The notes: a model not told the origin generated them from the sequence alone. A stretch of DNA of 64,000 nucleotides from Candidatus Omnitrophota bacterium (GCA_035292445.1 DATDQB010000023.1:89533-153532); one strand, 5' to 3'; positions 11,891 through 42,570 are shown, numbered from the stretch's first letter. Made by a program: numbers and translations.

Positions 11891-12173
11891 GGCGTGAGAC
11901 CTCCAGATAATTTAATAGCGTATGTACAAGAGTGGTTGTAAAAATTGATACAAAATTTACGGATTTATGATATAGTACACACCCACGATTTATTGTAATC
12001 AAAAAAAGTATACACTAAGTTCATTGAGCTGTTAACGAATATTAGAGAAATTATTGCCCCCATCGTTAGTTTTGCTTTAAATTTGCGGAACGTAAGTGAA
12101 CGCAAATTTTAGGCAAAACAATCCCGAGGGAAGCTTCAGCGACCGAGGGACTACAACATAAAAGAAATATTTT

Positions 12174-12249
12174 GGCCCCATCGTCTAGCCTGGCCCAGGA
12201 CGCTTGGTTCTCAACCAAGAAACGCGGGTTCGAATCCCGCTGGGGCCAT
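12174..12249 (+). tRNA. tRNA-Glu (anticodon CUC)
   Basis: The cloverleaf was folded by hand: acceptor ggcccca/tggggcc; D-stem gtc/gac; anticodon stem cttgg/ccaag with loop ttCTCaa; T-arm gcggg ttcgaat cccgc. Confidence 0.8.
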
Positions 12250-13085
12250 TAAATTCCCTTCAATTTGACCTGCGCCCAAACGGGCAAATGGTCGCTCGCC
12301 TTCTGGTTTTTGATACTTCCCGACCCAAGCACATCCATATTCTTCACAAAGATGTAATCCATGAGGCTTTTTTTGTTGAAGAGATACCAGTGCTTGTAGC
12401 TCCAGTCAACTTCCTTGGTGGCCAGCGTAAAACGGTGTTCCTGGAAGGCCTCTTCGATGATTTGGCGGTTGAATTTGGTGAAGGTGTTAAAATCGCCGGC
12501 AATAATGCAGTAATCAATGGGCGGGACGGAATGTAACAGCCGTTCCATCTGATTTCTGCGCTGGAACGGATGCAGCCAAATCCTCATATGAAGGCTGTAG
12601 GCCATGACAAATTTATCGCCGATTTTGATGACCGCCCCGACGGCAATGCGCTGCAGCTTGTCAGGGTCCAAATGCGGCAGAATGACTTTTTTGTCGTGGA
12701 TAATGGGCCATTTGGTCAGGATGGCGTTGCCAAAATCTTGGTTGTAGAGAGGATGCCGGACAGCCGGGTAATACACATAATTGTAGTTTAATTTCTTCGC
12801 GATTGTCTCAACGTCTTGGGGCTCCATCTCCTGCAGGAAAATGATGTCGGCACCGGCCAAATCCTGATGGGTTTTCAGGAGCTCACCGGCCAGATCCGTT
12901 TTTTTGGAAAATTTCACGTTGTAGGAAACGACTTTGATCGTGTCTTGAGCAGGGCTAGTTGGCGAGGGTCCGCTTGCGGAAGAATACCGCGGCCCCGAGA
13001 GGTCAGTGTAATTTTCTCCGTCTGTGACCAGGCTGCAGCCCAGAGGGGTTAAAAGTATCAATAATAAAAATAATCTTCTTATCAT
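12249..13085 (-). CDS. Endonuclease/exonuclease/phosphatase (EEP) family lipoprotein
   Basis: Lipobox LLTPLGC. EEP motifs (IIFLQEME, IIAGDFNTF, ASDHLPVWAQV). Confidence 0.75.
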   Translation of the reverse strand: MIRRLFLLLILLTPLGCSLVTDGENYTDLSGPRYSSASGPSPTSPAQDTIKVVSYNVKFSKKTDLAGELLKTHQDLAGADIIFLQEMEPQDVETIAKKLNYNYVYYPAVRHPLYNQDFGNAILTKWPIIHDKKVILPHLDPDKLQRIAVGAVIKIGDKFVMAYSLHMRIWLHPFQRRNQMERLLHSVPPIDYCIIAGDFNTFTKFNRQIIEEAFQEHRFTLATKEVDWSYKHWYLFNKKSLMDYIFVKNMDVLGSGSIKNQKASDHLPVWAQVKLKGI

Positions 13086-28388: not shown

Positions 28389-28465
28389 GGGGGATTAGCT
28401 CAGTTGGTTAGAGCGTCTGACTTACATTCAGAAGGTCGAGGGTTCGATCCCTTCATCCCCCACCA
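28389..28465 (+). tRNA. tRNA-Val (anticodon UAC), CCA encoded
   Basis: Hand-folded cloverleaf: acceptor gggggat/atccccc; anticodon stem tctga/tcaga with loop ctTACat; T-arm gaggg ttcgatc ccttc. Confidence 0.8.
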
Positions 28466-28521: not shown

Positions 28522-28599
28522 GGGGTCGTGGTGTAGCCCGGTTAACATGTCAGCTTGTCACGCTGAAGATCGCGAGTTCAAATCTCGTCGACCCCGCCA
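28522..28599 (+). tRNA. tRNA-Asp (anticodon GUC), CCA encoded
   Basis: Acceptor ggggtcg/cgacccc; anticodon stem tcagc/gctga with loop ttGTCac; T-arm gcgag ttcaaat ctcgt. Confidence 0.8.
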
Positions 28600-30159
28600 T
28601 TTGACATTCTTGGCGTAGTATTCTTCATAAACCTCTTCATTTTCAACAGTTTGAAGAGGTTCTAACCGATTGTGGAGGGTTTGTACCTCTGGCGAGAGGT
28701 TTTGAAGGATCGAGAGGCTTTTCTCGACGTCAATTTGAAGTGTCCTATTCATAAGCGTGAGGTTCGAACCTAAACAGGCCAGAATCTCACGCTTTTCATT
28801 TAGGGAGCCTGTTTCAAATCGTTTTTTGGCTGTCTCAGCAAAAGAGAAGAGTTCCTCGGCTTTATTCATCCAAGATTTAACCCGGTCATTTGAATCCACA
28901 AGTAATGCCTCAAGTTTAGCTTTTTCCTGCATCAATTCCTTTTTCTTTCGCTCATACTCTTCAACGGAAATCTCCTCATTGATCCGCATATTGATGAGGT
29001 TGTCCAGTTTCCGGCGGTTGCCTTCCAGTTGTCTTTGTTGGGAAAAAATTACCTCTTCCCGGTCAACGACTTCCTTTTCCTGCTCTTCTTTAAGGTATTT
29101 CAGAGCCCATTTATGAAATGACGGCGGAATGCGAATGTTCTCCAAAACTTTCATGATCTCAGCTTCGAGGATTTCTTTTCGGACGGGCATCTGAGAGCAT
29201 TTCGGATTAATCCTCTTCGTGCAACGATAATAAGTATAATGATGAAAATTTCCGTTCTTCTGCCGCTTGAATTTCTCTTCGGCGGTGATGGAAGCTCCGC
29301 ATTCTCCACAACGGATTAAGCCGGTATAAGCGAAGGAATGAAATTTGGCCCGGGGGCGGCTTCGGTTGTCGATGATTAACTGAGCCAGATGGAAGTCTGA
29401 TTCGGAAATCATTGGCTCGTGTTTCCCCGGATAAATCTCACCAAGCCAAAGAAAGGAGCCATAATAAAAAGGATTGCGGAATAACCGAAAGAAGGCCGGT
29501 CGGCTTATGATCTTGCCGTCCTGTGTCTTTAAATTCATTTCCTTTGCAACAACATGAAGCTTTTCGAGTGAACATTTCTTTTGTAAAAGTGTTTCCCAAA
29601 GTTGTTTCAATGCCGGGAAAGAATCCGGGTCTCTGAAAATGGGGGGCAAGTCCGGCTGTTGATATTTGTTATTGAGATAGCCAAGAGGGGGACGGTGAGG
29701 ATACCAGCCGTTTTGAATCTTATTTCTGTGACCACGTTTTGCATTAACGCTAAGATCAATGATGTATTGGTTGGCCATGCCGAACTCAAGGCTCATCATC
29801 AAGACGTTATCTTGCGGGTAATAGCTCTTTTGAAAGGTCTGAATGTGCTTGATAAGGGCCTGTTGAAGCATCCAGCTGATTGTGCCTCCATCAATGGGAT
29901 TCCGGGCCAATCTGTCCAATTTCCAGCAAATGATACCATCAGCCACACCTTTATGAATATCGGCCACCATTTGGCTGAAAATGGGCCTTCCCGGGGCTTT
30001 GGCGGACTTTTCCTCAGTCAGGACATCAATGACCTTTAGATTGTATTTCTGGGCCAGCTTCTTGAGTTCGTCGATCTGGGAGGGGATAGAAGCGACCTGC
30101 CGGTCTTCGTTTTCGGAAGACTTTCGGGCATACAAGAAATAACGGGGAGGCAGGGTCAT
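28558..30159 (-). CDS. Large serine recombinase (resolvase/invertase catalytic domain + recombinase domain + zinc ribbon)
   Basis: The N-terminus (YARKSSENEDRQVASIPSQ) has the catalytic Ser context. DRLARN. A Cys-rich zinc ribbon (CGECGASI...YYRC). The last 42 nt overlap tRNA-Asp positions 37-78. Confidence 0.9.
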   Translation of the reverse strand: MTLPPRYFLYARKSSENEDRQVASIPSQIDELKKLAQKYNLKVIDVLTEEKSAKAPGRPIFSQMVADIHKGVADGIICWKLDRLARNPIDGGTISWMLQQALIKHIQTFQKSYYPQDNVLMMSLEFGMANQYIIDLSVNAKRGHRNKIQNGWYPHRPPLGYLNNKYQQPDLPPIFRDPDSFPALKQLWETLLQKKCSLEKLHVVAKEMNLKTQDGKIISRPAFFRLFRNPFYYGSFLWLGEIYPGKHEPMISESDFHLAQLIIDNRSRPRAKFHSFAYTGLIRCGECGASITAEEKFKRQKNGNFHHYTYYRCTKRINPKCSQMPVRKEILEAEIMKVLENIRIPPSFHKWALKYLKEEQEKEVVDREEVIFSQQRQLEGNRRKLDNLINMRINEEISVEEYERKKKELMQEKAKLEALLVDSNDRVKSWMNKAEELFSFAETAKKRFETGSLNEKREILACLGSNLTLMNRTLQIDVEKSLSILQNLSPEVQTLHNRLEPLQTVENEEVYEEYYAKNVKWRGRRDLNSRSSA

Positions 30160-30332
30160 TTTTTCTTAATTGATTTCAGGATTTTATCCAGCTCCGCTTT
30201 CTTGTAGAGCCGGTAATTATTCATGGGATGGCGGTAGGGTTTAAGTTTCCCAAGATTATCCCAATTACGCAGGGTTTGACCGGTCACTTTTAGATATTCA
30301 GCCGCTTCTTTGATCGTCATGTAATCGCTCAT
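30156..30332 (-). CDS. AlpA/Xis/MerR-like helix-turn-helix DNA-binding protein (58 aa)
   Basis: Hand translation: MSDYMTIKEAAEYLKVTGQTLRNWDNLGKLKPYRHPMNNYRLYKKAELDKILKSIKKK. The stop overlaps the recombinase start (ATGA). Confidence 0.6.
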   Translation of the reverse strand: MSDYMTIKEAAEYLKVTGQTLRNWDNLGKLKPYRHPMNNYRLYKKAELDKILKSIKKK

Positions 30333-30407
30333 GTTTATTTCTCCTTAACCTTATAAAACATTATAATCAATATTTCGTTAGGTTCAAGTGATTTATTGTT
30401 TAGAATT

Positions 30408-30959
30408 TTATGACTTATTGATATTTATCTGCTTTCCACCATCAGCCGCTATGTTGACTTGTAAAACCATGCCCTTGTTGAGCCTTCTTATCCTTGCAAG
30501 CGTTTCGATAGCCTTTAAATAGCGATTTTGATAGCGTGTCAAATTTTCCTGCCAATACTCTCCTGTACGGATGGAATACTCGCCGCCGGTCAATAGATTG
30601 TGCATTCTTCCTTCAGCATGGTTCATTCCAATCCAACAAAGCATAATCTGATCAATTATCAGTCGCTCGGATTGATCAGAGGTGTTATATCCCAGATTCT
30701 CTCTAATACTCATTACCTCTGCTTTAAGAATTAATTGTTGGGCATTGCTGGGGTTAAGTTTATCAATGAATTGCTCTAATAAACTCCCAGTATAACCTAT
30801 TCCGACTTGACAAAGAGATGGATTATTGCACACCATGTTTTCAGCTTCTCGCAAATCTTTAGAATCCGGTTTTTCTTTATCAATTTTGAAAAGAATGTCT
30901 AAAAACTTTTTAGTTTCATCCTTTAATAAGAATTCCTGCTGACTTTTATTAAATAACAT
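30408..30959 (-). CDS. Hypothetical protein (element cargo)
   Basis: 183-aa ORF, co-oriented and tightly spaced with its neighbours. No recognisable motif. Confidence 0.45.
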   Translation of the reverse strand: MLFNKSQQEFLLKDETKKFLDILFKIDKEKPDSKDLREAENMVCNNPSLCQVGIGYTGSLLEQFIDKLNPSNAQQLILKAEVMSIRENLGYNTSDQSERLIIDQIMLCWIGMNHAEGRMHNLLTGGEYSIRTGEYWQENLTRYQNRYLKAIETLARIRRLNKGMVLQVNIAADGGKQININKS

Positions 30960-30972
30960 ATCTATATGTCCT

Positions 30973-31467
30973 CTATTTGAATAGTTCTTTTGCTTGTTTA
31001 GCCGTGATACCTATATCCCGAAAAAGGCGGTCAAATTTATGACTCTCTTTAGAGCTCTCATAGGTTAGATTAAAGCAATGCCTACAACCGAAATATTTGC
31101 CGCTGGCCAGATACAGCACCCCAACCCGGCGATTGCACGAATAACCATTGACCACCAGAGGACAGATGAACCACCACCGGCGACCCCCGAAATGGCAGGA
31201 TGTCCAGACCAGTCGGGCCTTATAATCCAGTTCGGCCTTTTCACCGGAGTGCCTGTCGGTCTGTATGTACTGGAAACGGATATATTCGTCGCCTTCCACC
31301 GTTGAAATCACAAAACCAATGCTCCCGGTCTGTTCACCGTTTCGGCTCCAATTACACCCGCCCCAGTGTATACTGCCGTCAAAGTAGCGGTGCTGTTTAA
31401 GGAATTTGGTTGAAAGCGATTTGCATTCCTCGACCGTCCATCTGTTTGAATAAGACCATCTGCCCAT
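30973..31467 (-). CDS. Hypothetical protein (element cargo)
   Basis: 164-aa ORF with W/C-rich segments. No recognisable motif. Confidence 0.45.
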   Translation of the reverse strand: MGRWSYSNRWTVEECKSLSTKFLKQHRYFDGSIHWGGCNWSRNGEQTGSIGFVISTVEGDEYIRFQYIQTDRHSGEKAELDYKARLVWTSCHFGGRRWWFICPLVVNGYSCNRRVGVLYLASGKYFGCRHCFNLTYESSKESHKFDRLFRDIGITAKQAKELFK

Positions 31468-31501
31468 AAAATTGTTATCCTCTCAGAAATTTCCTAAATC
31501 A

Positions 31502-32035
31502 TTAGGGTTTTCTGTCAATAACACTAACAACCGTTCCATTGAAAAGCCGTTTAACCTCGTCAATCCGTTGAAGGGATTCGGCGTCTATCCCTTGAAGCAT
31601 TTCCAGTTCGTTCGGTGTGAAGCAATATGGATTATCCTTTGGGACGGCTGGGGCGGCAGTAAGCGGCTCACTGGGAATCTCTTTTATTTGCGGCGGAATA
31701 TCAATAACCTTTCGGGCGTGAGTTGATTGAATGTGTCCCAAACGTCCCAAAATATCCTTTTGAATAGGTTTATTCTCCGGCGTGGTAGGTGAGGGGTTCC
31801 AAATTTTGAAACCGCTTGGGACGCCGGTCTTAATCCCCGCCAGTTCAAAAATTCTCTGCCGGTGTTTGTGTCCATCGTTTCCCGGGAAGACCACACAGCC
31901 GAACCTGCCGCTTTGCTCAATGAAAAGGTGTTCGCCTTTGCGGTCGTTACCGGCTTCAGCGCAGGCTGGACAGCGGGCAATAACCTTTGTGCCGTGCTGT
32001 TTGACGTTTTCCAGTTTTGACAAGTCTATTCCCAT
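31502..32035 (-). CDS. CHC2-type zinc-finger protein (primase zinc-binding-domain-like)
   Basis: CPACAEAGNDRKGEHLF...GRFGCVVFPGNDGH matches the CP.C...H...F.C CHC2 primase zinc-finger pattern. It overlaps the primase gene end by 10 nt. Confidence 0.55.
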   Translation of the reverse strand: MGIDLSKLENVKQHGTKVIARCPACAEAGNDRKGEHLFIEQSGRFGCVVFPGNDGHKHRQRIFELAGIKTGVPSGFKIWNPSPTTPENKPIQKDILGRLGHIQSTHARKVIDIPPQIKEIPSEPLTAAPAVPKDNPYCFTPNELEMLQGIDAESLQRIDEVKRLFNGTVVSVIDRKP

Positions 32036-33957
32036 CCTTGCGGCTCCTGTCCTTTGAATTTGACCCGGCGGAATCCTTTGACCGATTTGCCGTCTCTGTG
32101 GATGGAGTGCGCCTTTGCCGTCCCAAACAATTCCAGCATTAAGCCTTCAAGTTCCCGGTAAACAACGGTAATGGGTTTGGGGTTCCATCCCATCGAAGGG
32201 CAGTACTCAGCGTATGCCTCAACGATTTCCGGGACGGATAAATCCAGATGATCGTCGCGCTCAATCCGGTCGCTCAGAAAATGGCACAGGCTGTCGCTTT
32301 CGGCCAGCAGGGCATCGACAACACCCTCTTGGGACGGGGGCATTTGAATGTCGCCGATTTGTTCGATGTCTTTAAGAAGTAAGCCTAAGCCTTCAAGGGC
32401 CCAGTTCAATATGCCGGAGCCTTCCTGTTGGATGAGGACATCCGCAAAGTCCGGGATTTTTTTGGCAGGTGGCGGGCCTTCAAACCGGCAGATCAAAAGA
32501 CGCCGTTTCCATGCCCCGATGTCGCCATCCAGTTTGACTTGCAGGCGTGAATTGGCCGTAATTACGATGCAGAAATTTCCTTTCATCTGGAAGTTGCCCG
32601 TGCCGCCTTTTTGCTCGGTATCAAACCAGTCGCCGCCTACCAAACCCTTGATTACATAAGCGCCTTTTTCGGAGAGGAATTTTCCCGGCACGTCAACACC
32701 GACCAAAAGCGTCTTTTTAAGATAGCGGTAAAGCTCAAACCGTTCGCTTAAATGCCGGGTACGTAGTTCCGTGACGTTAATCTGGCCGATGAGTTTCTGG
32801 ATGATGAGGGCAAGGGTTGACTTCCCCTGCCCGGGCTTGCCTTCAAGAATCAGAAACCGCTGGATGAGGTTATTGCCCAACAAGCAAAGCCCGATATATT
32901 TCTGGATGATAAGCGCGTCCTCGACAGTGACGGCGGGCAGTAACAGGTCATTTAAAAACCGTTCGCACCGGACGCTGGCATCAAAAGCAATCGGGCAGTA
33001 ATTGCGGGAGAAAAGATCAGGTGAGAAGGGCAAAAGGTCGGCCTCTTTATTGTCTTTGAAGACAATCACACCGTTGGCCAGATGCACGTAATTGGATGTT
33101 TTCTGGAAAGCGTGCCGTCTCTCGCAGATGCCTTTGAGTTGCGCCACGATGTGATTGAGTGTCGTGGCCGTACGTTTGGTTTCAAGTGCCGGAAGCGAGT
33201 TTTCGCGTGAGACAGCCAGCAGACGTTCGGCGATTTCGTTTTTGATGAGGTGTTCGGTGATGTCGGTGTAAATTCCCGTCTTGTCATCGTAGCGGTAGAA
33301 ACCTCGTTCATCCGGCTCATAGAGCTGGATATGTTCGGCGTTATGCAGTCCGGCCCAGAAACTTTGATTGATGCCTGTAAGATTTCCGTCTTTGTTGAAA
33401 TAATACGGCTGGCCATATTGATCCACCAAAGCGCAGAATGCAGGGTCATTGTCCGCTGGCGTTTCCGTGTCTTGTTCCGGGATGTAGTCGGCAAGGATTT
33501 TTAACAGATCGTCCACGCTGATTGATGCGATAGGCTCATCCTGTTCAACCATATAGGCCGTTTCAGTGTCCGGGTGAATAGAGCCGGGCCCCACAACCTG
33601 AGAACCGTGCGAGATAATCTCACCGTGATCCTGATCGTCTTTCTTGAGTTTGATTTTTTTATCAATGCCCGGGCAAATCAGATAAAAATGAACACCTTTT
33701 TTTGGTGTCTTGACGGTAAACGTCAACGGAAAATGTTCCTTTGCATAAGCGACCATCTCAGGAGAGTCGGCATCAACAATGACCAGATTGCCGCATCCAC
33801 CCAGAACGCCGTAATTATTTCCTTCATTGAACCATTGTTGAATGTCGGTCAATGAGTGAGGATGATTCGGCCAGTTTTTTTCAAAAGGCTTCTTGGATTT
33901 TGGAAGTAGTTTTACAAAACCAAAATCAGGATTGTGTAATTGTTGGGGGATGGTCAT
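32026..33957 (-). CDS. Bifunctional PrimPol N-terminal domain + phage/plasmid P4-type primase C-terminal NTPase (D5-like)
   Basis: The N-terminal PrimPol motif is YGVLGGCGNLVIVDADSPE...GVHFY. The C-terminus has a Walker A (GKPGQGKST) and a D5_N-like region. Confidence 0.8.
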   Translation of the reverse strand: MTIPQQLHNPDFGFVKLLPKSKKPFEKNWPNHPHSLTDIQQWFNEGNNYGVLGGCGNLVIVDADSPEMVAYAKEHFPLTFTVKTPKKGVHFYLICPGIDKKIKLKKDDQDHGEIISHGSQVVGPGSIHPDTETAYMVEQDEPIASISVDDLLKILADYIPEQDTETPADNDPAFCALVDQYGQPYYFNKDGNLTGINQSFWAGLHNAEHIQLYEPDERGFYRYDDKTGIYTDITEHLIKNEIAERLLAVSRENSLPALETKRTATTLNHIVAQLKGICERRHAFQKTSNYVHLANGVIVFKDNKEADLLPFSPDLFSRNYCPIAFDASVRCERFLNDLLLPAVTVEDALIIQKYIGLCLLGNNLIQRFLILEGKPGQGKSTLALIIQKLIGQINVTELRTRHLSERFELYRYLKKTLLVGVDVPGKFLSEKGAYVIKGLVGGDWFDTEQKGGTGNFQMKGNFCIVITANSRLQVKLDGDIGAWKRRLLICRFEGPPPAKKIPDFADVLIQQEGSGILNWALEGLGLLLKDIEQIGDIQMPPSQEGVVDALLAESDSLCHFLSDRIERDDHLDLSVPEIVEAYAEYCPSMGWNPKPITVVYRELEGLMLELFGTAKAHSIHRDGKSVKGFRRVKFKGQEPQGWE

Positions 33958-34110
33958 TATGAGAACCTTTACATGATGGTTTTACGACGGCTTTAAAGAA
34001 GCGCAGGAAACTTTCCGCCCGGGCCGCGGCCTCATCAAAAGCCAGCGCCTCGCCGCATTCTTTGAAATAGATTTCCTGAAATTCTTTGATCGCTTGTTCG
34101 CTTAGCATGA

Positions 34111-34158
34111 TTTATTTGGGCAATAATAAAAGATTCCGTAACATTTGCTTACGGAATC
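34111..34158 (-). terminator. Rho-independent terminator (minus strand) after the 385-aa hypothetical gene
   Basis: Perfect 10-bp inverted repeat gattccgtaa/ttacggaatc, followed on the minus strand by a U-rich tract. Confidence 0.6.
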
Positions 34159-34269
34159 AAGTATAGAGACGAATCAAAAATGTTGTAGATTGATAAACGG
34201 AAGGTTTTTTAAGGTTTTCTATATATAAAGAAAAATCGGGAAAGGCAGGATGTTTCTGTATGGCAAGGC

Positions 34270-35427
34270 TTAATATCCAGGGATTTCTTTACGGGCTTTC
34301 TTAATCCATTCCCTTTTTGCTTTTAATCTTTTTGTCTTATGGCGGGAATAATCTTTCTTGCTGTGGTATTGTCCAAAGCAATTTCTGCCGTCCGTGGTTT
34401 TATTGCAGAATTTCTTGTTGCGGAAATACCTTGCTAATAAACGACAATGCGCGCACTCAATGAGTTGATGATTGGCCTTCATGTCATCTATCAGGCTGTC
34501 GAAAAATAAACCAATAAAATCTACCACTGGATTGGCGGAGGTGTTTCTACGATATAGGATGAAGTTGTTTGCTTCTTCAAAGAACTTCTTGGATATTTTT
34601 TTCTTCTCCTTCCAGAGATGGCATAAACAAGCGACATTTTCAATCAAAGCCTCAAATTCCGCGTCTTTCAGATAAATGAATTCATTCGTGTTTTCGATAA
34701 GCTTTTTGCCGGCAAAGAGAAATTGGCGGATATCGTCCTCGTCAAATTCTTCCTGTAGATAATAAGCAGCGAGAACGTTGAAGGAAGGTTTGGGATTTAA
34801 AGAAATAATCGTATTCTTTAAATCGGACTTCAAATCATCAAAATTTTGATAGTTATCAATACCGCTTGAATCGTCTTTGTTGATTCTGGCTGCGCAGATT
34901 TTACCGGGGCGAATTTTAATGCCGAATAGAAATTTATCAGGGCTTTCGGCGATACACTCTTTCAAATAGGCTTCATTTTGCGGGACATCTTTCAAAGGAA
35001 ATATTGATTTTTTCATACTCTCGACTTTTGATTTGATCAAGTCGTCATAGTCCTTCTCAATAGAATCCTTTGCGGCGGCGTTTATAGATTGAAGGTGATA
35101 TTCTTTTAAATACTGGGCATAGGTCTGGGGGTTGTGAGGTATACCTTCCTTTTTAAGAAGGCGCGGGTGTTGCGCTATGAAATAAGTCATTTCATACTGG
35201 GCATCCACAACATATCCGAGCTTTTTCATCTTTTTATCGTGAAAGGTTATATCAATCACAAAAGAATCAAAGTCAGTGCCGTATTCATAAATCCTGTAGC
35301 GCTGATACGTTTCAGCGCAGAATTTACAGTGATCGTAATCGTCATGAATATAGATGAATTTGTCAGCTTGCCTTATCTCTGGCATATTTATAATAGTTGG
35401 CTTGGTTAAGTCGCCCAGAATTTTCAT
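34270..35427 (-). CDS. Hypothetical protein, AT-rich cargo gene divergent from hsdM
   Basis: 385-aa ORF with a K/E/D/Y-rich composition. CxxC (HCKFC) near the N-terminus and CAHC near the C-terminus. No recognisable catalytic motif. Confidence 0.55.
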   Translation of the reverse strand: MKILGDLTKPTIINMPEIRQADKFIYIHDDYDHCKFCAETYQRYRIYEYGTDFDSFVIDITFHDKKMKKLGYVVDAQYEMTYFIAQHPRLLKKEGIPHNPQTYAQYLKEYHLQSINAAAKDSIEKDYDDLIKSKVESMKKSIFPLKDVPQNEAYLKECIAESPDKFLFGIKIRPGKICAARINKDDSSGIDNYQNFDDLKSDLKNTIISLNPKPSFNVLAAYYLQEEFDEDDIRQFLFAGKKLIENTNEFIYLKDAEFEALIENVACLCHLWKEKKKISKKFFEEANNFILYRRNTSANPVVDFIGLFFDSLIDDMKANHQLIECAHCRLLARYFRNKKFCNKTTDGRNCFGQYHSKKDYSRHKTKRLKAKREWIKKARKEIPGY

Positions 35428-35484
35428 AGAAAATGACTATTTTTATATTATAATGTTTTATAATCTTTTTGTAAAGGAGCGGTA

Positions 35485-36948
35485 ATGTTTGAACAGACCT
35501 TTAAAAATATTGACGATATTCTGCATAAAGATGCCGGTTGTTCCAGTGAGCTGGATTATGTGGAGCAGACTTCATGGGTGCTTTTCATGAAGTATCTGGA
35601 TGACCTTGAGAAGGACAAGAAAACCTCGGCCAAGCTGGCGGGAAAGACCTATATAAACATCATCGGCCCCGAATACCGCTGGGACGTTTGGGCGACACCT
35701 AAAGACAAAGACGGCAAGCTGGATCATCATAAAGCCCTTACCGGCGATGACCTAAAAGATTTTGTTGATCACAAGCTGTCTCCCTATCTGAAAAAGTTTA
35801 AGACCAGCGCTCTGGGCCCGGACACTATTGAATACAAGATCGGCGAAATCTTCAGCGAGCTTAAAAACAAAATCCAGAGCGGCTATAACCTTCGCGAGGT
35901 CATCAATCTTGTTGATGAGCTCCGCTTCCGCTCCCATGTCGAAAAGCATGAGATGTCGCATCTCTACGAAGACAAGATTAAAAACATGGGCAACGCGGGC
36001 AGAAACGGCGGCGAATATTACACACCCCGTCCGCTGATTAAAACGATTGTCAAGGTGGTCGCGCCTGAAATCGGCGACAAAATTTATGACGGCGCTGTCG
36101 GTTCGGCAGGCTTCTTGTGCGAGGCCTTTGAATATCTGAAATCCAAAAAGAACCTCACCACCAAAGACGCCCAAACACTTCAGAAAAACACTTTCTACGG
36201 TAAAGAAAAAAAGTCGCTCGCCTACATCATCGGCACGATGAACATGATCCTGCACGGCATTGAAGCGCCCAATATTGTGCATACCAACACGCTGGCCGAG
36301 AACATCATGGACATTCAGGAAAAAGACCGCTATTCAATCGTGCTGGCAAATCCGCCTTTTGGCGGAAAGGAACGCAAGGAAGTCCAGCAGAACTTCCCCA
36401 TCAAGACCGGCGAGACCGCGTTTTTGTTCTTACAACATTTCATCAAGATTCTCAAAGCCGGAGGCCGGGCCGGTGTGGTCATCAAGAACACCTTTCTTTC
36501 AAACACGGACAACGCCTCGATCAGTCTTCGGAAACTCTTGCTGGAAAGCTGTAATCTGCACACGGTGCTTGACCTGCCCGGCGGCACATTCACCGGCGCG
36601 GGTGTCAAGACCGTGGTGCTGTTTTTTGAAAAAGGCGCGCCGACAAAAAAGGTCTGGTTTTACCAGCTTAATCTTGACCGTAACCTCGGCAAGACCAATC
36701 CGCTTAATGAAAACGATCTGGCGGAATTTGTGAAGTTGCAAAAGACCAAAGCGGATTCGGAAAACTCATGGACGGTCAATGTGGCGGATGTTGACAAAAC
36801 GACCTTTGATTTATCCGTCAAGAACCCGCACAGAAAAGATGAAACAGCGTTGCGCGAGCCAAAGGAAATATTGACCTCAATGAAGAAGCTGGACAAAGAG
36901 AGCGAGCAAATCTTAAACGGTATTTTAGAGATGATCCATGAAAAATAA
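35485..36948 (+). CDS. hsdM: Type I restriction-modification system DNA methyltransferase subunit
   Basis: HsdM N-terminal domain. N6-adenine MTase motif IV NPPFGG and motif I region (DGAVGSAGFL). Confidence 0.9.
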   Translation: MFEQTFKNIDDILHKDAGCSSELDYVEQTSWVLFMKYLDDLEKDKKTSAKLAGKTYINIIGPEYRWDVWATPKDKDGKLDHHKALTGDDLKDFVDHKLSPYLKKFKTSALGPDTIEYKIGEIFSELKNKIQSGYNLREVINLVDELRFRSHVEKHEMSHLYEDKIKNMGNAGRNGGEYYTPRPLIKTIVKVVAPEIGDKIYDGAVGSAGFLCEAFEYLKSKKNLTTKDAQTLQKNTFYGKEKKSLAYIIGTMNMILHGIEAPNIVHTNTLAENIMDIQEKDRYSIVLANPPFGGKERKEVQQNFPIKTGETAFLFLQHFIKILKAGGRAGVVIKNTFLSNTDNASISLRKLLLESCNLHTVLDLPGGTFTGAGVKTVVLFFEKGAPTKKVWFYQLNLDRNLGKTNPLNENDLAEFVKLQKTKADSENSWTVNVADVDKTTFDLSVKNPHRKDETALREPKEILTSMKKLDKESEQILNGILEMIHEK

Positions 36949-38101
36949 CTGGCCTATAGGAAAACTTGGCGAAGTTTGTGAAATAAGCACTGGGAAATCT
37001 AATGCTAATGAAGCAGTGGAAGATGGTGAATATGCTTTCTTTGATAGATCGAAAACAATTAAGAAAAGCGTCCGATTCCTTTTCGATTGCGAGGCAATAA
37101 TCATTCCGGGGGAGGGGCAAGAATTTTTTCCTAAATACTATAAAGGAAAATTTGATTTACACCAACGGGCGTATGCACTGTACAATTTCAACGAAAAAGT
37201 CGATATTCAATTTATTTATAAATATCTAATCCATTTTCATAAATATTTTGAAAATGTTGCAGTGGGGGCTACCGCAAAGTCATTAAGATTGCGACATTTT
37301 GAAGAGTTGCCCTTTCCGCTTCCATCACGCTCTGAACAAAAACAAATCGTTAAAGCTTTGGATGATGTTTTTGAAAAGACCTCTAAAGCCAAAGAAAACG
37401 CCGAGAAGAATCTGCAAAACGCCCACGAGCTTTTTGAATCGTATTTGCAAAACGTTTTTGCCAATCCGGGGGATGGGTGGGAAGATAAGCCGTTAAGTGA
37501 AATAACTACAAAAATTGGAAGCGGTGCAACACCCCGTGGAGGAAATAAAAGCTATAAAACAGAAGGCATTTCGTTGATCAGGAGTATGAATGTTCACGAT
37601 TTTGAGTTTAGAGAGAGAAACCTTGCTTTTATTGATGACCAACAAGCAAAAGAATTGAATAATGTTACGCTTCAAGAGAACGATGTTTTATTAAATATTA
37701 CAGGAGCTTCTGTGGCAAGATGTTGTGTTATCCCGAAGGAATATTTACCCGCAAGAGTTAATCAGCATGTTTCAATCATTAGAGCAAAGAAGGAAATTAT
37801 TGACCCAATTTTTCTAGGTTTATTATTAACGTCTAAATTCTATAAAGATCAATTGTTGTTTACTGGTGAACAAGGAGCGACAAGACAGGCAATTACAAAG
37901 GCACAATTAGAAGTTTTTAAGATAGTTTTTCCAAAATCATTGAATGAACAACAAGCCATTGTAAGAAAACTTGACATCCTTTCAATTGAAACCAAAAAGC
38001 TCGAGGCCATTTATCAGCAAAAATTAGCTGATTTGGAAGAATTGAAGAAATCCGTTTTACAGAGAGCTTTTAACGGCGAATTATCGGGGGCGCGGGGATG
38101 A
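36938..38101 (+). CDS. hsdS: Type I restriction-modification system specificity subunit
   Basis: Two target-recognition domains separated by conserved central and C-terminal coiled-coil repeats. Overlaps hsdM by 11 nt and hsdR by 4 nt. Confidence 0.85.
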   Translation: MKNNWPIGKLGEVCEISTGKSNANEAVEDGEYAFFDRSKTIKKSVRFLFDCEAIIIPGEGQEFFPKYYKGKFDLHQRAYALYNFNEKVDIQFIYKYLIHFHKYFENVAVGATAKSLRLRHFEELPFPLPSRSEQKQIVKALDDVFEKTSKAKENAEKNLQNAHELFESYLQNVFANPGDGWEDKPLSEITTKIGSGATPRGGNKSYKTEGISLIRSMNVHDFEFRERNLAFIDDQQAKELNNVTLQENDVLLNITGASVARCCVIPKEYLPARVNQHVSIIRAKKEIIDPIFLGLLLTSKFYKDQLLFTGEQGATRQAITKAQLEVFKIVFPKSLNEQQAIVRKLDILSIETKKLEAIYQQKLADLEELKKSVLQRAFNGELSGARG

Positions 38102-40482
38102 ACGAAGCCGAAACCAGAGCGGAATTGATTGACCCGAAGCTGAAGGAAAGCGGCTGGGGTGTTCTCGAGGGTTCCAAAGTTTTGCGGGAATACCACATTA
38201 CCGCCGGGAAAATCCAGACCGGCGGGAGCCGGGCCAAGCCGCTTATTGCCGATTATGTCCTTGTGTTTAATGGCCGCAAGCTGGCCACGATTGAAGCCAA
38301 GAGCGATGAAGAAGAAGTCGGCGAAGGCGTCGCGCAGGCCAAGAATTACGCCGAAAAAATGTGCTTGGAAACGACGTATGCCAGCAACGGGAAAGAGATT
38401 TATCAAATTTGCATGAAGACTGGCAAGGAAGGCCCGGCTGCCAAATTCCCCACACCACAGGAACTTTGGAACAAGACTTTTACCGAAGAAAATCAGTGGC
38501 GGAACAAATTCAGTCAAGTGCCGCTTGAAGACGTTGGCGGCACCAAGCCCGTCCGTTATTATCAGGAAATTGCGGTTAATAACGTCATGTCCGCGATTGC
38601 CGACGGCAGACAGCGCGTTTTATTGACATTGGCCACTGGCACAGGAAAAACCTTTATTGCCTTTCAAATCGCTTGGAAACTCTTTCAAACCCGTTGGAAC
38701 CTTCGGCGTGACGGAAGTCGAAGGCCCCGCATTCTGTTTTTGGCGGATAGAAATATTCTGGCGGATCAGGCGTTTAATGCTTTCTCACCGTTTCCCGAAG
38801 ACGCGCTGGCCCGCATCAAGCCGGATGAAATCCGCAGGCACGGGCGGGTTCCGACCAACGGGAGCATTTTCTTCACCATCTTTCAGACCTTTATGAGCGG
38901 TAGAGACAAAGACGGCAGGCCCGCGCCCTATTTTGGCGAATATCCGGCGGATTATTTCGATTTTATCGTGATTGATGAATGCCATCGCGGCGGGGCCAAT
39001 GATGAAGGCAACTGGCGGGCAATTCTGGAGTATTTCGCCCCGGCTGTTCAGCTTGGGCTGACCGCCACACCCAAGCGCCGGGATAACGTGGACACGTATC
39101 GCTATTTCGGTGAACCGGTGTATGTCTATTCGCTTAAAGAAGGCATCAACGACGGCTTCCTGACGCCGTTTAAGGTCAAAAGGATCAAGACGACACTGGA
39201 CGATTATATTTACACGTCCGATGACCGGGTCATTGAAGGCGAGGTCGAAGAAGGGAAAATTTATACCGAGCCGGACTTTAACAAAATCATTGAGATCAAG
39301 GAGCGCGAAGCCAAGCGGGTGCAGATATTCCTGTCCGAAATCAATCAGAATGAAAAGGCGATTGTCTTCTGCGCGACCCAAGACCATGCGGCGGCGGTGC
39401 GGGATTTGGTGAATCAATATAAAAAGAGCGGTGATCCAAATTATTGTGTGCGCGTCACGGCCAATGACGGCGCGCTGGGCGATCAGTTTTTGCGGGATTT
39501 TCAGGACAATGAAAAGACCATTCCGACTATATTGACGACTTCCCAGAAACTCTCCACCGGTGTGGACGCCCGCAATATCCGAAATATTATACTTATGCGC
39601 CCAATTAACTCGATGATTGAATTTAAGCAGATCATTGGCCGGGGAACGCGGTTGTTCGATGGGAAGGAGTATTTTACGATTTATGATTTCGTGGACGCAC
39701 ATCATCACTTCGCTGATCCCGAGTGGGACGGCGAGCCGATTGTTGAGGTTTGTTCCAAGTGTTTGGAAAATCCTTGTGTTTGTGAAAAGCCGCCACCCGG
39801 GCCATGTCCCCGATGCGGTCAGCGACCTTGTATTTGTGAGAGACCGCCGGAGCCGCCCTGTCCCAGATGTGGCAAAAGCCCTTGTGAGTGTCCCAAGAAG
39901 GTCAAAATCAAACTGCGTGACGGCAAGGAACGCGAAATTCAGCACATGATCGCGACTTCCTTTTGGAGTGCGGACGGGAAGCCGATCTCAGTAGAGGAAT
40001 TTCTACAAAGCCTATTTGGCATCTTACCGGAATTCTTCAAAAACGAAGAGGAATTGAGAAAAATCTGGTCTAGTCCCATAACACGTAAGACATTACTGGA
40101 AAATTTAGCCGCGGCTGGGTTTGGCAAGGATGAATTAACAACTTTACAGAAATTGATTGATGCTGAAAAAAGCGATCTCTTTGATGTGATCGAATTTGTC
40201 TCTTTCGCTATGAAGCCAATTACCAGAGAAAAGCGAGTTGCTTTAGCTCAGTTTAAAATATTCGCAGGTTTGAATAATAAACAGAAAGATTTTATTGAAT
40301 TTGTCCTCTCCCAATACATTGAAACTGGTGTTGAGGAGCTTGATCAGGAAAAACTCCCTGATCTTCTGACGCTAAAATATCAGGCCATCAGCGACGCGGA
40401 AGAAATCTTGGGCGGAGTGGATAATATTCGGACAACTTTTATAGATTTTCAGAAACATTTATATGAGAAAGTAGTGGTTTGA
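38098..40482 (+). CDS. hsdR: Type I restriction enzyme R subunit, with an unusual Cys-rich tandem motif insertion near the C-terminus
   Basis: N-terminal nuclease region (ADYVLV...IEAK PD-(D/E)xK). SF2 helicase motifs (LATGTGKT, DECHRGG). Insert CSKCLENPCVCEKPPPGPCPRCGQRPCICERPPEPPCPRCGKSPCECPKK at about 39751-39900. Confidence 0.85.
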   Translation: MNEAETRAELIDPKLKESGWGVLEGSKVLREYHITAGKIQTGGSRAKPLIADYVLVFNGRKLATIEAKSDEEEVGEGVAQAKNYAEKMCLETTYASNGKEIYQICMKTGKEGPAAKFPTPQELWNKTFTEENQWRNKFSQVPLEDVGGTKPVRYYQEIAVNNVMSAIADGRQRVLLTLATGTGKTFIAFQIAWKLFQTRWNLRRDGSRRPRILFLADRNILADQAFNAFSPFPEDALARIKPDEIRRHGRVPTNGSIFFTIFQTFMSGRDKDGRPAPYFGEYPADYFDFIVIDECHRGGANDEGNWRAILEYFAPAVQLGLTATPKRRDNVDTYRYFGEPVYVYSLKEGINDGFLTPFKVKRIKTTLDDYIYTSDDRVIEGEVEEGKIYTEPDFNKIIEIKEREAKRVQIFLSEINQNEKAIVFCATQDHAAAVRDLVNQYKKSGDPNYCVRVTANDGALGDQFLRDFQDNEKTIPTILTTSQKLSTGVDARNIRNIILMRPINSMIEFKQIIGRGTRLFDGKEYFTIYDFVDAHHHFADPEWDGEPIVEVCSKCLENPCVCEKPPPGPCPRCGQRPCICERPPEPPCPRCGKSPCECPKKVKIKLRDGKEREIQHMIATSFWSADGKPISVEEFLQSLFGILPEFFKNEEELRKIWSSPITRKTLLENLAAAGFGKDELTTLQKLIDAEKSDLFDVIEFVSFAMKPITREKRVALAQFKIFAGLNNKQKDFIEFVLSQYIETGVEELDQEKLPDLLTLKYQAISDAEEILGGVDNIRTTFIDFQKHLYEKVVV

Positions 40483-40595
40483 AATGACCCATTTGAACAG
40501 TTCATTTTCTTGGCTTTTTGGGCCCAATGTGCTAAAATTTAGCACTATTAAATGGGTAGAAGTTTTCTCAAAATTTTCATAACTATTGAGGGAAT

Positions 40596-41675
40596 ATGAG
40601 TTTAGATTCAAGGATTCAAAAAATTAAGAAATTAGAGAGCGAGAGAAAGTCTCGCGTTATTTGTTATATTAACTCTGATAGGCCAAGTAATTGTCCCATT
40701 GCTGGGATGACCATGCAGATTTCCCCGGACGTGCAACTTCATTTTTATGAGCATTTAAAAAAGATTGGTAAAACCAAGAATATTGATTTGGTTCTTTATA
40801 CACGGGGTGGTAATATTGAAACGGTTTGGCCATTGGTTTCTTTAATAAGGGAATTTTGTGATTCTTTTTCTGTTTTGGTTCCGTTTCGTGCCCATAGCGC
40901 GGGGACAATGATATGCTTGGGGGCTAATGAGATTAGGATGGCTAAATTGGCAGAATTGAGTCCGATTGATCCTACGACGGGAAATCAATTTAATCCAATT
41001 GATGAAACAAATCCAAGATCAAGGAAGGGAATAAGTGTCGAAGATGTTACTTCCTATTTAGATTTAGCTAAAGAGGATTTTGGAATCAAAAAAGAGGAGA
41101 ATATTGTCAATATTTTTAAACATCTAACTGATAAAATAGAGCCATTGGCTCTTGGCAATGTTAAGAGGGTTCATAAGCTGATTCGGCGACTAGCAGATGA
41201 GTTGTTGCATTTGCATTTTGATGAGGCTAAATATTCTAAAAAGATTGAGGCGATTAAAAAGACTTTAACATCAGAATTATATTCGCATGTTCACTATATC
41301 AATCGTCAGGAAGCCATGAAGATTTTAGGAGAAGAAATCGTCAAATTTTGCTCTGAAAATGAAGAAGCGGCGTTATGGGATGTGTTTGTTGATTATGCTG
41401 ATACTTTAAAGTTGAAGGAAACTTTTAACATAAAAGAATATATGGGAACAGATGTATCAAAAGAACTTGAAGTGGTTGGGGCTTTTATTGAAAGTGCCGA
41501 CCTGTCGCATACGTTTAATGCAAAGAGTAAATTGACGCAACGCTCAAAATTACCACCTAATTTGCAGGTGCAGGTTCAGCCGGGGCAGGCGTTTCCTTTA
41601 ATTCCTGGCTTCCCAATTGAGATTGAAGTAGATCTTATTTCTGTAGGATGGAAGGTGAACGATGGAAAAATTTAA
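40596..41675 (+). CDS. SDH-family (Clp/crotonase-fold) serine protease-like protein
   Basis: ...ICYINSDRPS...LVLYTRGGNIETVWPLV...FRAHSAGTMICLGANEI resembles the ClpP-like fold of the serine dehydrogenase proteinase family. A palindrome gtgctaaaatttagcac lies upstream. Confidence 0.55.
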   Translation: MSLDSRIQKIKKLESERKSRVICYINSDRPSNCPIAGMTMQISPDVQLHFYEHLKKIGKTKNIDLVLYTRGGNIETVWPLVSLIREFCDSFSVLVPFRAHSAGTMICLGANEIRMAKLAELSPIDPTTGNQFNPIDETNPRSRKGISVEDVTSYLDLAKEDFGIKKEENIVNIFKHLTDKIEPLALGNVKRVHKLIRRLADELLHLHFDEAKYSKKIEAIKKTLTSELYSHVHYINRQEAMKILGEEIVKFCSENEEAALWDVFVDYADTLKLKETFNIKEYMGTDVSKELEVVGAFIESADLSHTFNAKSKLTQRSKLPPNLQVQVQPGQAFPLIPGFPIEIEVDLISVGWKVNDGKI

Positions 41676-41940
41676 TCAAGATTTTTATAGGACTTCCTTG
41701 GTCAGCACAGATGAAGGATTAGTTTCCGAGCGATTTGATTACTCAACAGCAGACATTGAGGCCAGTGTGTTTTTTGGACTTGTTTCTCCTGAAATTTATC
41801 AAGGATCGGGAGAAGCTCCGAATATTTCTGGTGTTTATAAATTGATCGATGAGCAATTGCATGCTGTTGTAGATACAGCGCCTCCAAACGCTGTTCCGCT
41901 TTCAAAATCCTCTGGATTATTTAAACTTGCAGGCGAATAA
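41662..41940 (+). CDS. Hypothetical small protein, translationally coupled to the protease gene
   Basis: 92-aa ORF overlapping the upstream stop by 14 nt. No known motif. Confidence 0.4.
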   Translation: MEKFNQDFYRTSLVSTDEGLVSERFDYSTADIEASVFFGLVSPEIYQGSGEAPNISGVYKLIDEQLHAVVDTAPPNAVPLSKSSGLFKLAGE

Positions 41941-41951
41941 ATTGAATATTT

Positions 41952-42368
41952 ATGATCTATGCAAAAGGTATTTTATTAGATACGGCGGCTCTTTATGCAA
42001 TTGCAGACTCACGAGACAAATACCACTCTAAAGCGGTAAGTTTCTTAAATCAGATTCAAAAGAGTTCCCAACCGCTTTTTATTTCAAATGTCACAATTTA
42101 CGAAGCGTATAGGTTAATTTTGCATAGGCTTGATATTAAAAAGGCTCTATTTTTTTTAGAAGAGATTTTTGATGGGTCTATTCGAATTGAATACATCACT
42201 ACGGCAGATGAAAGAATTGCCAGAGATTGTTTAAAGAAATACGATGATCAACCGTTTTCTTTTGTTGATGCCTTAAATTTTGCTGTTATGGGTAGGATTA
42301 AGATTGCAAAAGTGTTTACTTTTGATAGCCACTTTAATATTATTGGGTTTGAACAGATGCCATCGTAG
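41952..42368 (+). CDS. PIN-domain nuclease (VapC-like)
   Basis: Acidic residues at the expected positions (LLDTAAL..., ...YEA..., FVDALNFAV). Length 138 aa. Confidence 0.7.
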   Translation: MIYAKGILLDTAALYAIADSRDKYHSKAVSFLNQIQKSSQPLFISNVTIYEAYRLILHRLDIKKALFFLEEIFDGSIRIEYITTADERIARDCLKKYDDQPFSFVDALNFAVMGRIKIAKVFTFDSHFNIIGFEQMPS

Positions 42369-42528
42369 TATCAAGCAATAGGAAGCCAAGAGTTTTGAGT
42401 TAGAAGAGGAAGGCAAAATAACGATTGGCTTTAAGACATTGATGGGGCCATTAAACAGGTTCTAACTTGGTCTAGCCAGCCCCGCCATCAAGATTTGAAC
42501 TGGGGTTCTAGTTCAGATCAAATTCAGA

Positions 42529-42570
42529 TCAAAAAATCCTCGACGGATAAATCCGTCGGGGATTTTTTAT
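42529..42570. terminator. Bidirectional rho-independent terminator
   Basis: A 14-bp stem aatcctcgacggat / atccgtcggggatt, flanked by A6 and T6. Confidence 0.65.

Follow-up and report, generated by a model that had tools for sequence, protein, structure and literature searches.

Insertion into tRNA genes is classically the work of tyrosine integrases. The locus described here raises the question of whether a tRNA gene can also be the natural target of a serine integrase and, if so, what kind of element is brought in by such an enzyme. It occupies positions 28,522 to 42,570 of a stretch of 64,000 nucleotides from a Candidatus Omnitrophota metagenome-assembled genome (MAG) (GCA_035292445.1, DATDQB010000023.1:89533-153532); the whole of this stretch is referred to as the window. 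An initial annotation, made from the sequence alone, had proposed an insertion at a tRNA-Asp gene by a serine and not by a tyrosine recombinase, and this has been borne out by the domains of the large serine recombinase (LSR), by the exact repeats at both ends and by the finding of empty sites. It is very probable that the locus holds a recently mobile integrative element of 13,888 bp, which was inserted into the 3' end of tRNA-Asp(GTC) by its own LSR. This element is best described as a tycheposon-like integrative, probably self-replicating cargo element. It provides a base-exact and polymorphic example of a serine integrase in a tRNA gene, which may be typical of an entire clade from little-studied lineages with small genomes.

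Boundaries of the element and its empty site

The features that define the insertion are the following, all positions being those of the window.

28522-28599, plus strand: tRNA-Asp(GTC), intact and with encoded CCA (ARAGORN; Rfam, 65.1 bits)
28558-30159, minus strand: LSR, 533 amino acids (aa) in the integrated state (Pfam Resolvase, Recombinase and Zn_ribbon_recom; PHROGs integrase)
28592-28600, plus strand: 9-bp core of attL, CCCCGCCAT, made of tRNA positions 71-78 plus one base; in the empty sites it joins 42480-42488 with an overlap of 9 nt
42431-42479, minus strand: P arm of attP, with the T-loop mimic GGTTCTAAC at 42458-42466; it encodes the LSR tail WLDQVRTCLMAPSMS and its stop
42480-42488, plus strand: 9-bp core of attR, CCCCGCCAT (repeat search and empty-site contigs)
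42489-42509, plus strand: B' arm of attB (host DNA), with AGATTTGAACT at 42491-42501, which repeats the T-arm 11-mer perfectly in inverted orientation, symmetric about the core
42532-42570, no strand assigned: bidirectional terminator of the host (hairpin at 42541-42558), which closes the tRNA-Val/tRNA-Asp unit in the empty site

The comparison of empty and occupied sites has revealed that the 13,888 bp of the element are flanked by the two copies of CCCCGCCAT. Empty sites, a check that the initial annotation had recommended, were sought through contigs encoding exactly the same flanking host proteins, and they were found in two independent samples. In L005 (JGI 3300025324) position 28600 is directly joined to position 42480 via a single CCCCGCCAT, with 99.97% identity over 3.2 kb, and the same join via one CCCCGCCAT is present in L009 (ENA ERZ27254865), where the identity is 100% over 11 kb. 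Empty-site alleles therefore exist and the repeat boundaries are exact, the opposite of what the initial annotation had named as its refutation. Occupied copies of the element come from four samples and are 100% identical. Since sites with and without the element coexist in what amounts to a single population, the movement of the element must be recent, and its excision can probably be read from the same presence/absence polymorphism.

The sequence common to attL and attR consists of the last four bases of the acceptor stem, the discriminator, CCA and one more base. The tRNA remains intact after insertion because the DNA located 5' of the core belongs to the host and both sites have the same core. 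It is the empty-site contigs, and not repeat statistics, that prove the boundary: the 9-mer occurs three times in the window, versus 0.71 copies expected by chance, and would be weak evidence alone, while the 11-mer is found in the window only as the T-arm and as its inverted copy at the right end (two copies versus 0.02 expected). Both right-end sequences had been noticed in the initial annotation, and both are real, the 9-mer marking the end of the element and the inverted 11-mer being the B' half-site of attB. Their positions had to be corrected, from 42487-42495 to 42480-42488 for the former and from 42499-42509 to 42491-42501 (AGATTTGAACT) for the latter. The same annotation had placed a bidirectional terminator and then host genes behind them, in agreement with the hairpin at 42541-42558 and with the ArsR/MMPL/LolA-like operon that constitutes the right host flank; pyrD and pyrF form the left one.

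These data bear directly on the possibility that the locus is an old and fixed genomic island with a decaying integrase, in which the tRNA overlap and the 9-mer would be relics. The fact that no circular junction was recovered and the lack of the native C-terminal tail in the integrated LSR would fit such an island. Nevertheless, it is extremely unlikely, given that the empty and occupied alleles lie in different samples on flanks that are 99.97-100% identical, that the copies from the four samples do not differ, that the open reading frame (ORF) of the LSR is intact and keeps all the invariant residues, and that the P arm retains the conserved attP motif.

Related to the host unit, a tRNA-Val gene lies at 28389-28465 (ARAGORN, with which Rfam agrees), and the Rfam scan of the element returned two tRNAs and no other match. 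Integration shifts the host terminator 13.9 kb away from the tRNA. The tRNA-Val/tRNA-Asp unit is thus left without a terminator of its own once the element is inserted, and transcripts that continue from the tRNA promoter would run antisense to the integrase gene in its 3' part. The only terminator-like site behind tRNA-Asp on the plus strand of 28601-29033 is a weak one at 29013-29033.

The integrase and the geometry of its attachment sites

The LSR matches PF00239 (3.5e-19), PF07508 (2.4e-05) and PF13408 (1.2e-11). It carries the catalytic motif Y10-x-R12-x-S14 and the invariant catalytic residues K13/S14, R58 and D82-R83-L84-x-R86, of which S14, R58, D82, R83 and R86 do not vary in 34 homologues; the zinc-ribbon cysteines C284, C287, C313 and C321 are invariant in the homologue alignment as well. 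The closest structure in the PDB is the catalytic domain of the TP901-1 integrase (E 1.4e-06), and the matches to XisF and CcrB of NCBIfam are far under the cut-off. Judging by these residues the LSR is catalytically intact, and it is predicted to recombine attP with attB.

The stop codon of the LSR (28558-28560) is located inside the tRNA gene, and the ORF overlaps the tRNA at 28558-28599, i.e. tRNA positions 37-78, as the initial annotation had stated. The last ten residues, RRDLNSRSSA, are translated from the antisense strand of the tRNA, and the TGG codon of W521 is complementary to the CCA of the tRNA. The overlap had been interpreted as the attachment region from the anticodon loop to the 3' end, an interpretation that does not hold, since the sequence common to attL and attR is limited to 9 bp at the very 3' end. 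The 42-nt overlap is simply the ORF reading through the antisense strand of the tRNA up to a stop, and hence it is not the attachment region.

When the P arm (reverse complement of 42431-42479) is joined after Gly523, the result is an LSR of 538 aa ending in WLDQVRTCLMAPSMS. The LSR has 3,811 database matches, and the tail motif (R)WLxxVRTCL[LM] ends 9 of the best 120 database homologues; the same tail is present in genome loci without a tRNA behind the LSR, including L095 and L101. The closest attP-type homologue, P0002, is 69% identical and has been found on 10 contigs. Six of these were examined: there is no tRNA within 5.4 kb downstream, where a methyltransferase and genes of no known function are located, and their configuration is of attP type. 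The conserved V-R-T is encoded by a T-loop sequence, GTT-CGA-ACC, which in the window reads GTT-AGA-ACC. Conservation of the tail at the protein level was considered and found less likely, because the codons spell GTTCGAACC.

It could also be thought that the exchange of the C-terminus on integration is a regulatory switch, the 15-aa tail WLDQVRTCL... being replaced by the 10 antisense-tRNA residues to give two forms that differ in activity or directionality, as in Mx8 IntP. The tail motif is indeed conserved in the attP-form homologues, and there are precedents with a functional effect in which the att site lies inside the integrase gene, namely Mx8 and the rumA integrative and conjugative elements (ICEs) with serine integrases (PMC4701971). 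On the other hand VRT(C) is encoded by GTTCGAACC, a mimic of the T-loop, so that conservation at the DNA level suffices; the motif is followed by anything between 2 and about 30 residues, and the tails of the integrated state go from none up to a read-through of the whole tRNA. These variable tails, together with a motif encoded by the T-loop, argue against a constrained protein function, and the switch is regarded as unlikely. An att site inside the integrase gene, with different C-termini in the two states, has been described for Mx8 and for the streptococcal rumA ICEs with serine integrases (PMC4701971), and this feature is not new in kind. Unlike in Mx8 intP and the rumA ICEs, the change here affects only 10-15 terminal residues, and the DNA site accounts for their conservation.

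The attB site has been reconstructed as AGTTCAAATCT-cgtcga-CCCCGCCAT-ca-AGATTTGAACT. The tRNA supplies the B arm of attB and attL, with the T-arm 11-mer AGTTCAAATCT at 28575-28585, and the inverted 11-mer of the B' arm belongs to the host, as its presence in the empty-site contigs shows. The junctions read ...CGTCGA-CCCCGCCAT-CAAGATTTGAACT... in attB and ...GGTCTAGCCAG-CCCCGCCAT-TTGACATTCTT... in the reconstructed attP. In the attB dyad, centred on the third C of the core (28594), 16 of 24 positions are symmetric, and the inverted repeat reaches 19 nt at 84% complementarity. The whole attB would therefore comprise about 39 bp, made of the T-arm AGTTCAAATCT, 8 bp to the centre and the mirror-image copy downstream, and the 2-bp crossover would fall within the CCCC run, where the dyad has its centre.

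The distance from the start of GTTC to the centre of the dyad is 18 nt in the tRNA and 23 nt in the P arm of the window, which means that the mimic lies 5 bp further out. If the offset is measured from the TGG/CCA anchor, it is 17 for the real T-loop of the tRNA-type junctions versus 22 for the mimic of the attP-type junctions, and this pattern has been found in three matched pairs (the window; L075/L049; L053/L064) and also in L095 and L101. A shift of the zinc-ribbon motif 5 bp outward in attP with respect to attB was reportedly proposed by Rutherford, Van Duyne and colleagues, from the structure of the A118/LI integrase, as the rule by which LSRs discriminate their sites. Since the mimic is displaced 5 bp outward in attP, it is most likely the T-loop sequence that the zinc-ribbon domain recognises, and the acceptor/CCA end that lies at the crossover. 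The LSR would thus join attP to attB at the acceptor/CCA end while its zinc-ribbon domain reads the T-loop. This geometry, with a real T-arm in attB and a shifted mimic in attP, offers a testable account of the recognition of tRNA genes by LSRs and of the switching of their targets.

The enzyme resembles phiC31, Bxb1, A118/LI and TP901-1 in its three domains and its catalytic serine, and its sites share with those of phage LSRs the short core, the quasi-palindromic attB and the attP motif placed 5 bp outward. It differs from phage LSRs in its remote sequence, in the use of a tRNA instead of a coding or intergenic target and in an integrase ORF that spans attP.

Relatives of the integrase and their tRNA targets

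Relatives of the LSR were searched for in one genome per GTDB species, which gave at least 564 of them, and the best 80 (42-67% identity) were used for the study of loci. They belong mostly to MAGs of Omnitrophota, Patescibacteria, Elusimicrobiota, Margulisiibacteriota and Planctomycetota. The LSR 3' end falls inside the contig in 73 loci, and in 51 of these 73 the 3' end of a tRNA or tmRNA gene is located on the opposite strand at the LSR 3' end, versus about 0.5 expected from a density of 0.1 tRNA per kb. The targets are tRNA-His (23 loci), tRNA-Asn (10), tRNA-Gln (7), tRNA-Lys (6), and tRNA-Ala, tRNA-Trp, tRNA-Ile, tRNA-Ser and tmRNA (one each). The TGG of W521, an invariant residue, exactly complements CCA in all 23 tRNA loci where the alignment reaches W521, and at the single tmRNA locus the two are shifted by 3 nt.

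No user of tRNA-Asp was seen besides the LSR of the window. The closest relatives of this LSR insert at tRNA-His, which has almost the same T-arm (GATTTGAAC) and a different acceptor end, a situation that fits retargeting via a change of the core. Reading of the T-loop would account for the target switches of the relatives among tRNA-His, Asn, Gln, Lys, Asp and tmRNA.

The chances appear even that these enzymes form a very large clade of serine integrases in which the natural attB is the T-arm plus the acceptor/CCA end of tRNA and tmRNA genes, the T-loop is read by the zinc ribbon, the mimic in attP is displaced 5 bp outward and the ORF ends across attP. No description of a clade of tRNA-targeting serine integrases was found in the literature searched, and an earlier notice of serine integrases at tDNA may exist. 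In a 2014 paper serine integrases were not known at tRNA genes, and a 2026 survey of 430,134 proviruses reported that they favour coding sequences (PMC13626063). If such a clade is real, the view of tRNA genes as targets of tyrosine integrases would require revision, and a simple, cofactor-independent family of integrases would have been re-aimed repeatedly among tRNAs, that is, at a target module present in every genome. A family aimed at a universal sequence module would also be of practical interest for genome engineering. Related to this, serine integrases are already widely used as tools in that field.

The relatives were also inspected for attR by looking for the core repeat plus a P-type motif in 10-kb flanks, and only L070 and, doubtfully, L090 gave a match. 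L070 contains two P arms (661 and 3965) upstream of one LSR and is probably a tandem array. Like it, L049, L052, L032 and L089 show extra P-type arms, or a complete tRNA 1.2-5.7 kb past an attP-type junction, and the five loci look like tandem arrays or accretions at one tRNA.

Besides, 5 of 65 unoccupied tRNA genes have their own inverted T-arm (at least 9 nt) within 60 nt downstream, including a tRNA-Pro in L016 and a tRNA-Ser(gga) in L021; these five could be unused attB sites or scars of the LSR clade. Two bins labelled as DPANN archaea, L042 (Pacearchaeota) and L050 (Woesearchaeota), encode LSR relatives of about 50% identity. The tRNA-His/tRNA-Arg context of L042 is the same as that of Patescibacteria loci, and mis-binning is possible.

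Gene content and the kind of element

The genes and regulatory sites located between the LSR and the right end are listed below.

30156-30332, minus strand: excisionase-family protein of 58 aa with an HTH_17/MerR helix-turn-helix (HTH) (TIGR01764 excise, 30.0 bits versus a cut-off of 28.8; PHROGs)
30351-30387, minus strand: promoter-like site of the HTH-LSR operon, TTGAAC-16-TATAAT, which holds one arm of a 17-nt repeat (30351-30367)
30408-30959, minus strand: p183, 183 aa, without family and without detectable relative in the fetched loci
30973-31467, minus strand: p164, hallmark protein of 164 aa with invariant C91, C102, C111, C128 and C131
31502-32035, minus strand: p177, 177 aa, with an N-terminal CxxC...H...C; kept beside the primase in relatives
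32026-33957, minus strand: PrimPol plus DUF5906/P4-family primase C-terminal (helicase-like) protein, 643 aa (TIGR01613, 96.5 bits, below the cut-off of 108.7)
33926-34108, minus strand: p60, ORF of 60 aa at the head of the core operon
34270-35427, minus strand: p385, 385 aa, divergent from hsdM; kept in some relatives (69% identity in L095)
35447-35463, plus strand: ATTATAATGTTTTATAA, the other copy of the 17-nt repeat, within the promoter-like site ahead of hsdM
35485-40482, plus strand: Type I restriction-modification (R-M) operon with hsdM (35485-36948), hsdS (36938-38101) and hsdR (38098-40482) (Pfam, PADLOC)
40596-42368, plus strand: serine protease of SDH/ClpP fold (359 aa), ORF of 92 aa and PIN protein (138 aa) (profile searches)

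The core operon runs in the order p60, PrimPol-helicase, p177, p164, p183, HTH protein and LSR, with a terminator-like hairpin (34132-34158) just upstream of p60. Profile matches and cysteine motifs agree with the AlpA/Xis-like HTH, the zinc-finger protein and the PrimPol/P4 primase of the initial annotation, p164 and p177 both being Cys-rich. The stop of the HTH gene overlaps the start codon of the LSR, and its product is a candidate directionality factor or regulator. As regards p164, which is probably a zinc ribbon, 569 homologues were obtained, all of them unannotated, with the best 120 at 61-83% identity and none of the 569 matching a Pfam domain. Its best non-identical homologue reaches 83%, versus 69% for that of the LSR. 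Contigs of equal length suggest that the homologues of p164 occur together with the LSR. When its AlphaFold2 model (predicted local distance difference test, pLDDT, 56.7) was compared with the PDB by Foldseek, nothing was found under E 0.1. The 17-nt repeat ATTATAATGTTTTATAA is perfect and inverted, and it is common to the promoter-like sites of the HTH-LSR operon and of hsdM, which suggests a shared promoter or operator that links the expression of the integrase and of the R-M system.

The defence cargo claimed in the initial annotation was recovered, the R-M system by Pfam and PADLOC and the protease/PIN module by profile. In PADLOC the hits were MTase_I (2.6e-161, covering 1-485 of 487 aa), Specificity_I (6.8e-70) and REase_I (1.3e-130); hsdS contains two target-recognition domains, and hsdR contains the REase_I and EcoEI_R_C domains. 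The Type I R-M system is complete, with adjacent hsdM, hsdS and hsdR of full length. The 92-aa ORF and the PIN protein may form a toxin-antitoxin pair. Neither p385 nor the protease/92-aa/PIN module had a match in PADLOC, and the latter is no catalogued defence system.

The core module is kept in relatives located at tRNA-His (L024, L016 and L021). Homologous hsdM/hsdR with divergent hsdS are present in L016 (89/86/35%) and also in L021 and L101, and other relatives carry other cargo. In L024, an Omnitrophota MAG contig (JBDRIY010000123.1) with the element at tRNA-His, the identities to the window are 93% for the HTH protein, 81% for the primase, 76% for p164 and 58% for the LSR, values suggesting that elements alike in other respects have exchanged the integrase together with its target module. 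The HTH-LSR operon was considered as a trait of the whole family and discarded, since it was found in only 12-19 loci, all of them in the subclade near Omnitrophota.

The arrangement of these genes had led to the description of the element as satellite-like. According to this interpretation, it would be a P4-like phage satellite or one similar to phage-inducible chromosomal islands (PICI-like), excised and replicated upon infection by a helper phage and packaged into helper capsids, and the core proteins without family would have hijacking functions. The gene set reminiscent of P4 (integrase, HTH of AlpA/Xis type and C-terminal domain of a P4-family primase), the small size, the position at a tRNA and the defence cargo, which is common in satellites, are all compatible with it, and p183, p164, p177 and p385 are available as proteins without assigned function. 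Nevertheless, the scans of PHROGs, Pfam and NCBIfam did not reveal any capsid, terminase, head-size or helper-interference family; the lack of phage structural genes, already noted in the initial annotation, agrees with the PHROGs scan. The protease scores 24.8 bits against the head-maturation family, whose threshold is 120. One LSR relative was found among the 2.9 million viral contigs of IMG/VR, versus at least 564 in genome contigs, and the attP-configuration relatives carry a methyltransferase and unassigned genes, not virion genes. A satellite thus finds no positive support among capsid, packaging and helper-interference genes or in IMG/VR, and this origin is considered improbable.

An integrative mobilisable element, which would borrow the conjugation apparatus of another element by means of an unrecognised oriT and of one of the unassigned proteins acting as relaxase, would also show integration and replication modules without transfer genes, this being its typical layout, and some proteins here have no assigned function. 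However, no family of relaxases, coupling proteins (type IV coupling protein, T4CP) or the type IV secretion system (T4SS) was detected by Pfam, NCBIfam and PHROGs, and no such genes were seen in the relatives; mobilisation of this kind is very improbable.

The locus is therefore better read as an integrative cargo element that depends on its own LSR. Its excision would require a directionality factor, for which the translationally coupled 58-aa HTH protein and the conserved, Cys-rich p164 are the candidates. The PrimPol-helicase would be the replication module of the excised circle, and the Type I R-M system and the protease/PIN module would represent the benefit of the element to the host.

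Several observations weigh against this reading. No circular or attP form was found among the contigs encoding the exact PIN, p60 or LSR proteins, all of which are integrated copies, nor did the exact scan of metagenome contigs for the core plus the P' arm give any match, in a collection that evidently lacks these samples, given that a known JGI attL contig was not returned either. The inverted T-arm in B' is known from this host alone. The P' arm, which lies in coding sequence, has no T-loop-like motif, and an attP conceived as a palindrome in which the conserved tail mirrors the P' coding sequence had to be rejected, because at best 10 of 24 positions are symmetric and the T-loop motif is missing from P'. 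The proposed position of the crossover, the reading of the T-loop by the zinc ribbon and the candidates for the directionality factor come from sequence geometry and the published model of LSRs. Four core proteins are without assignable function. Finally, contig L003 (ENA ERZ27254865 k141_1538781), from the same sample as an empty attB, carries the core module from p60 to the LSR with 100% identity, and at 5663-5728 its 9-bp core is followed by 66 nt of unrelated AT-rich DNA that is neither attB nor attP. This arm is not a tRNA or the P arm, it has no match in the window, and it leaves the LSR with the tail 'GL*'. At its other end L003 breaks off where core and cargo meet, at window position 34253. 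A circle was rejected because the ends of the contig do not overlap; L003 may instead stem from insertion at a pseudo-site, from a tandem partner, from a variant lacking the cargo or from a chimera.

Among known systems, the closest are the tycheposons of Prochlorococcus, where an integrase adjacent to a tRNA is accompanied by an excisionase, a primase/helicase and cargo, and where an LSR replaces the tyrosine recombinase in 27 of 937 elements of tycheposon type (Hackl et al., bioRxiv 10.1101/2020.12.28.424599). The element shares with them the site-specific insertion at a tRNA, the set of integrase, excisionase and primase/helicase and the variable cargo, and it lacks virion and conjugation genes as the cargo-type tycheposons do. 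The likeness is one of gene layout. The host belongs to Omnitrophota, the integrase is an LSR and the repeat has 9 bp, whereas tycheposons mostly have tyrosine recombinases and repeats formed by part of the tRNA. Islands and satellites of tyrosine integrases at tRNA genes (P4-type, Islander) are similar in the use of the 3' side of a tRNA that is preserved, in the adjacent integrase and in the Xis-type HTH, primase and cargo. Here, unlike in Islander-type islands, there is no tyrosine recombinase, and the repeat is of 9 bp instead of a displaced tRNA fragment of 20-50 nt. Pipolins are likewise integrative elements that have a replication gene of their own and carry defence genes, with neither virion nor conjugation functions (PMC11551731), but they encode a primer-independent PolB that is not present here. 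Their tyrosine recombinases act at tRNA genes, and the pipolins that bear LSRs are at non-tRNA sites (PMC11551731). The element adds a defence-carrying, probably self-replicating type of island to those of Omnitrophota.

Elsewhere in the window, an ORF of 1,500 aa (2014-6516, minus strand) had no Pfam match at E <= 0.001. A second island was considered at tRNA-Glu CTC (12173-12249) and discarded, since the abutting ORF (12249-13085, minus strand) encodes a protein of the endonuclease/exonuclease/phosphatase family and not an integrase.

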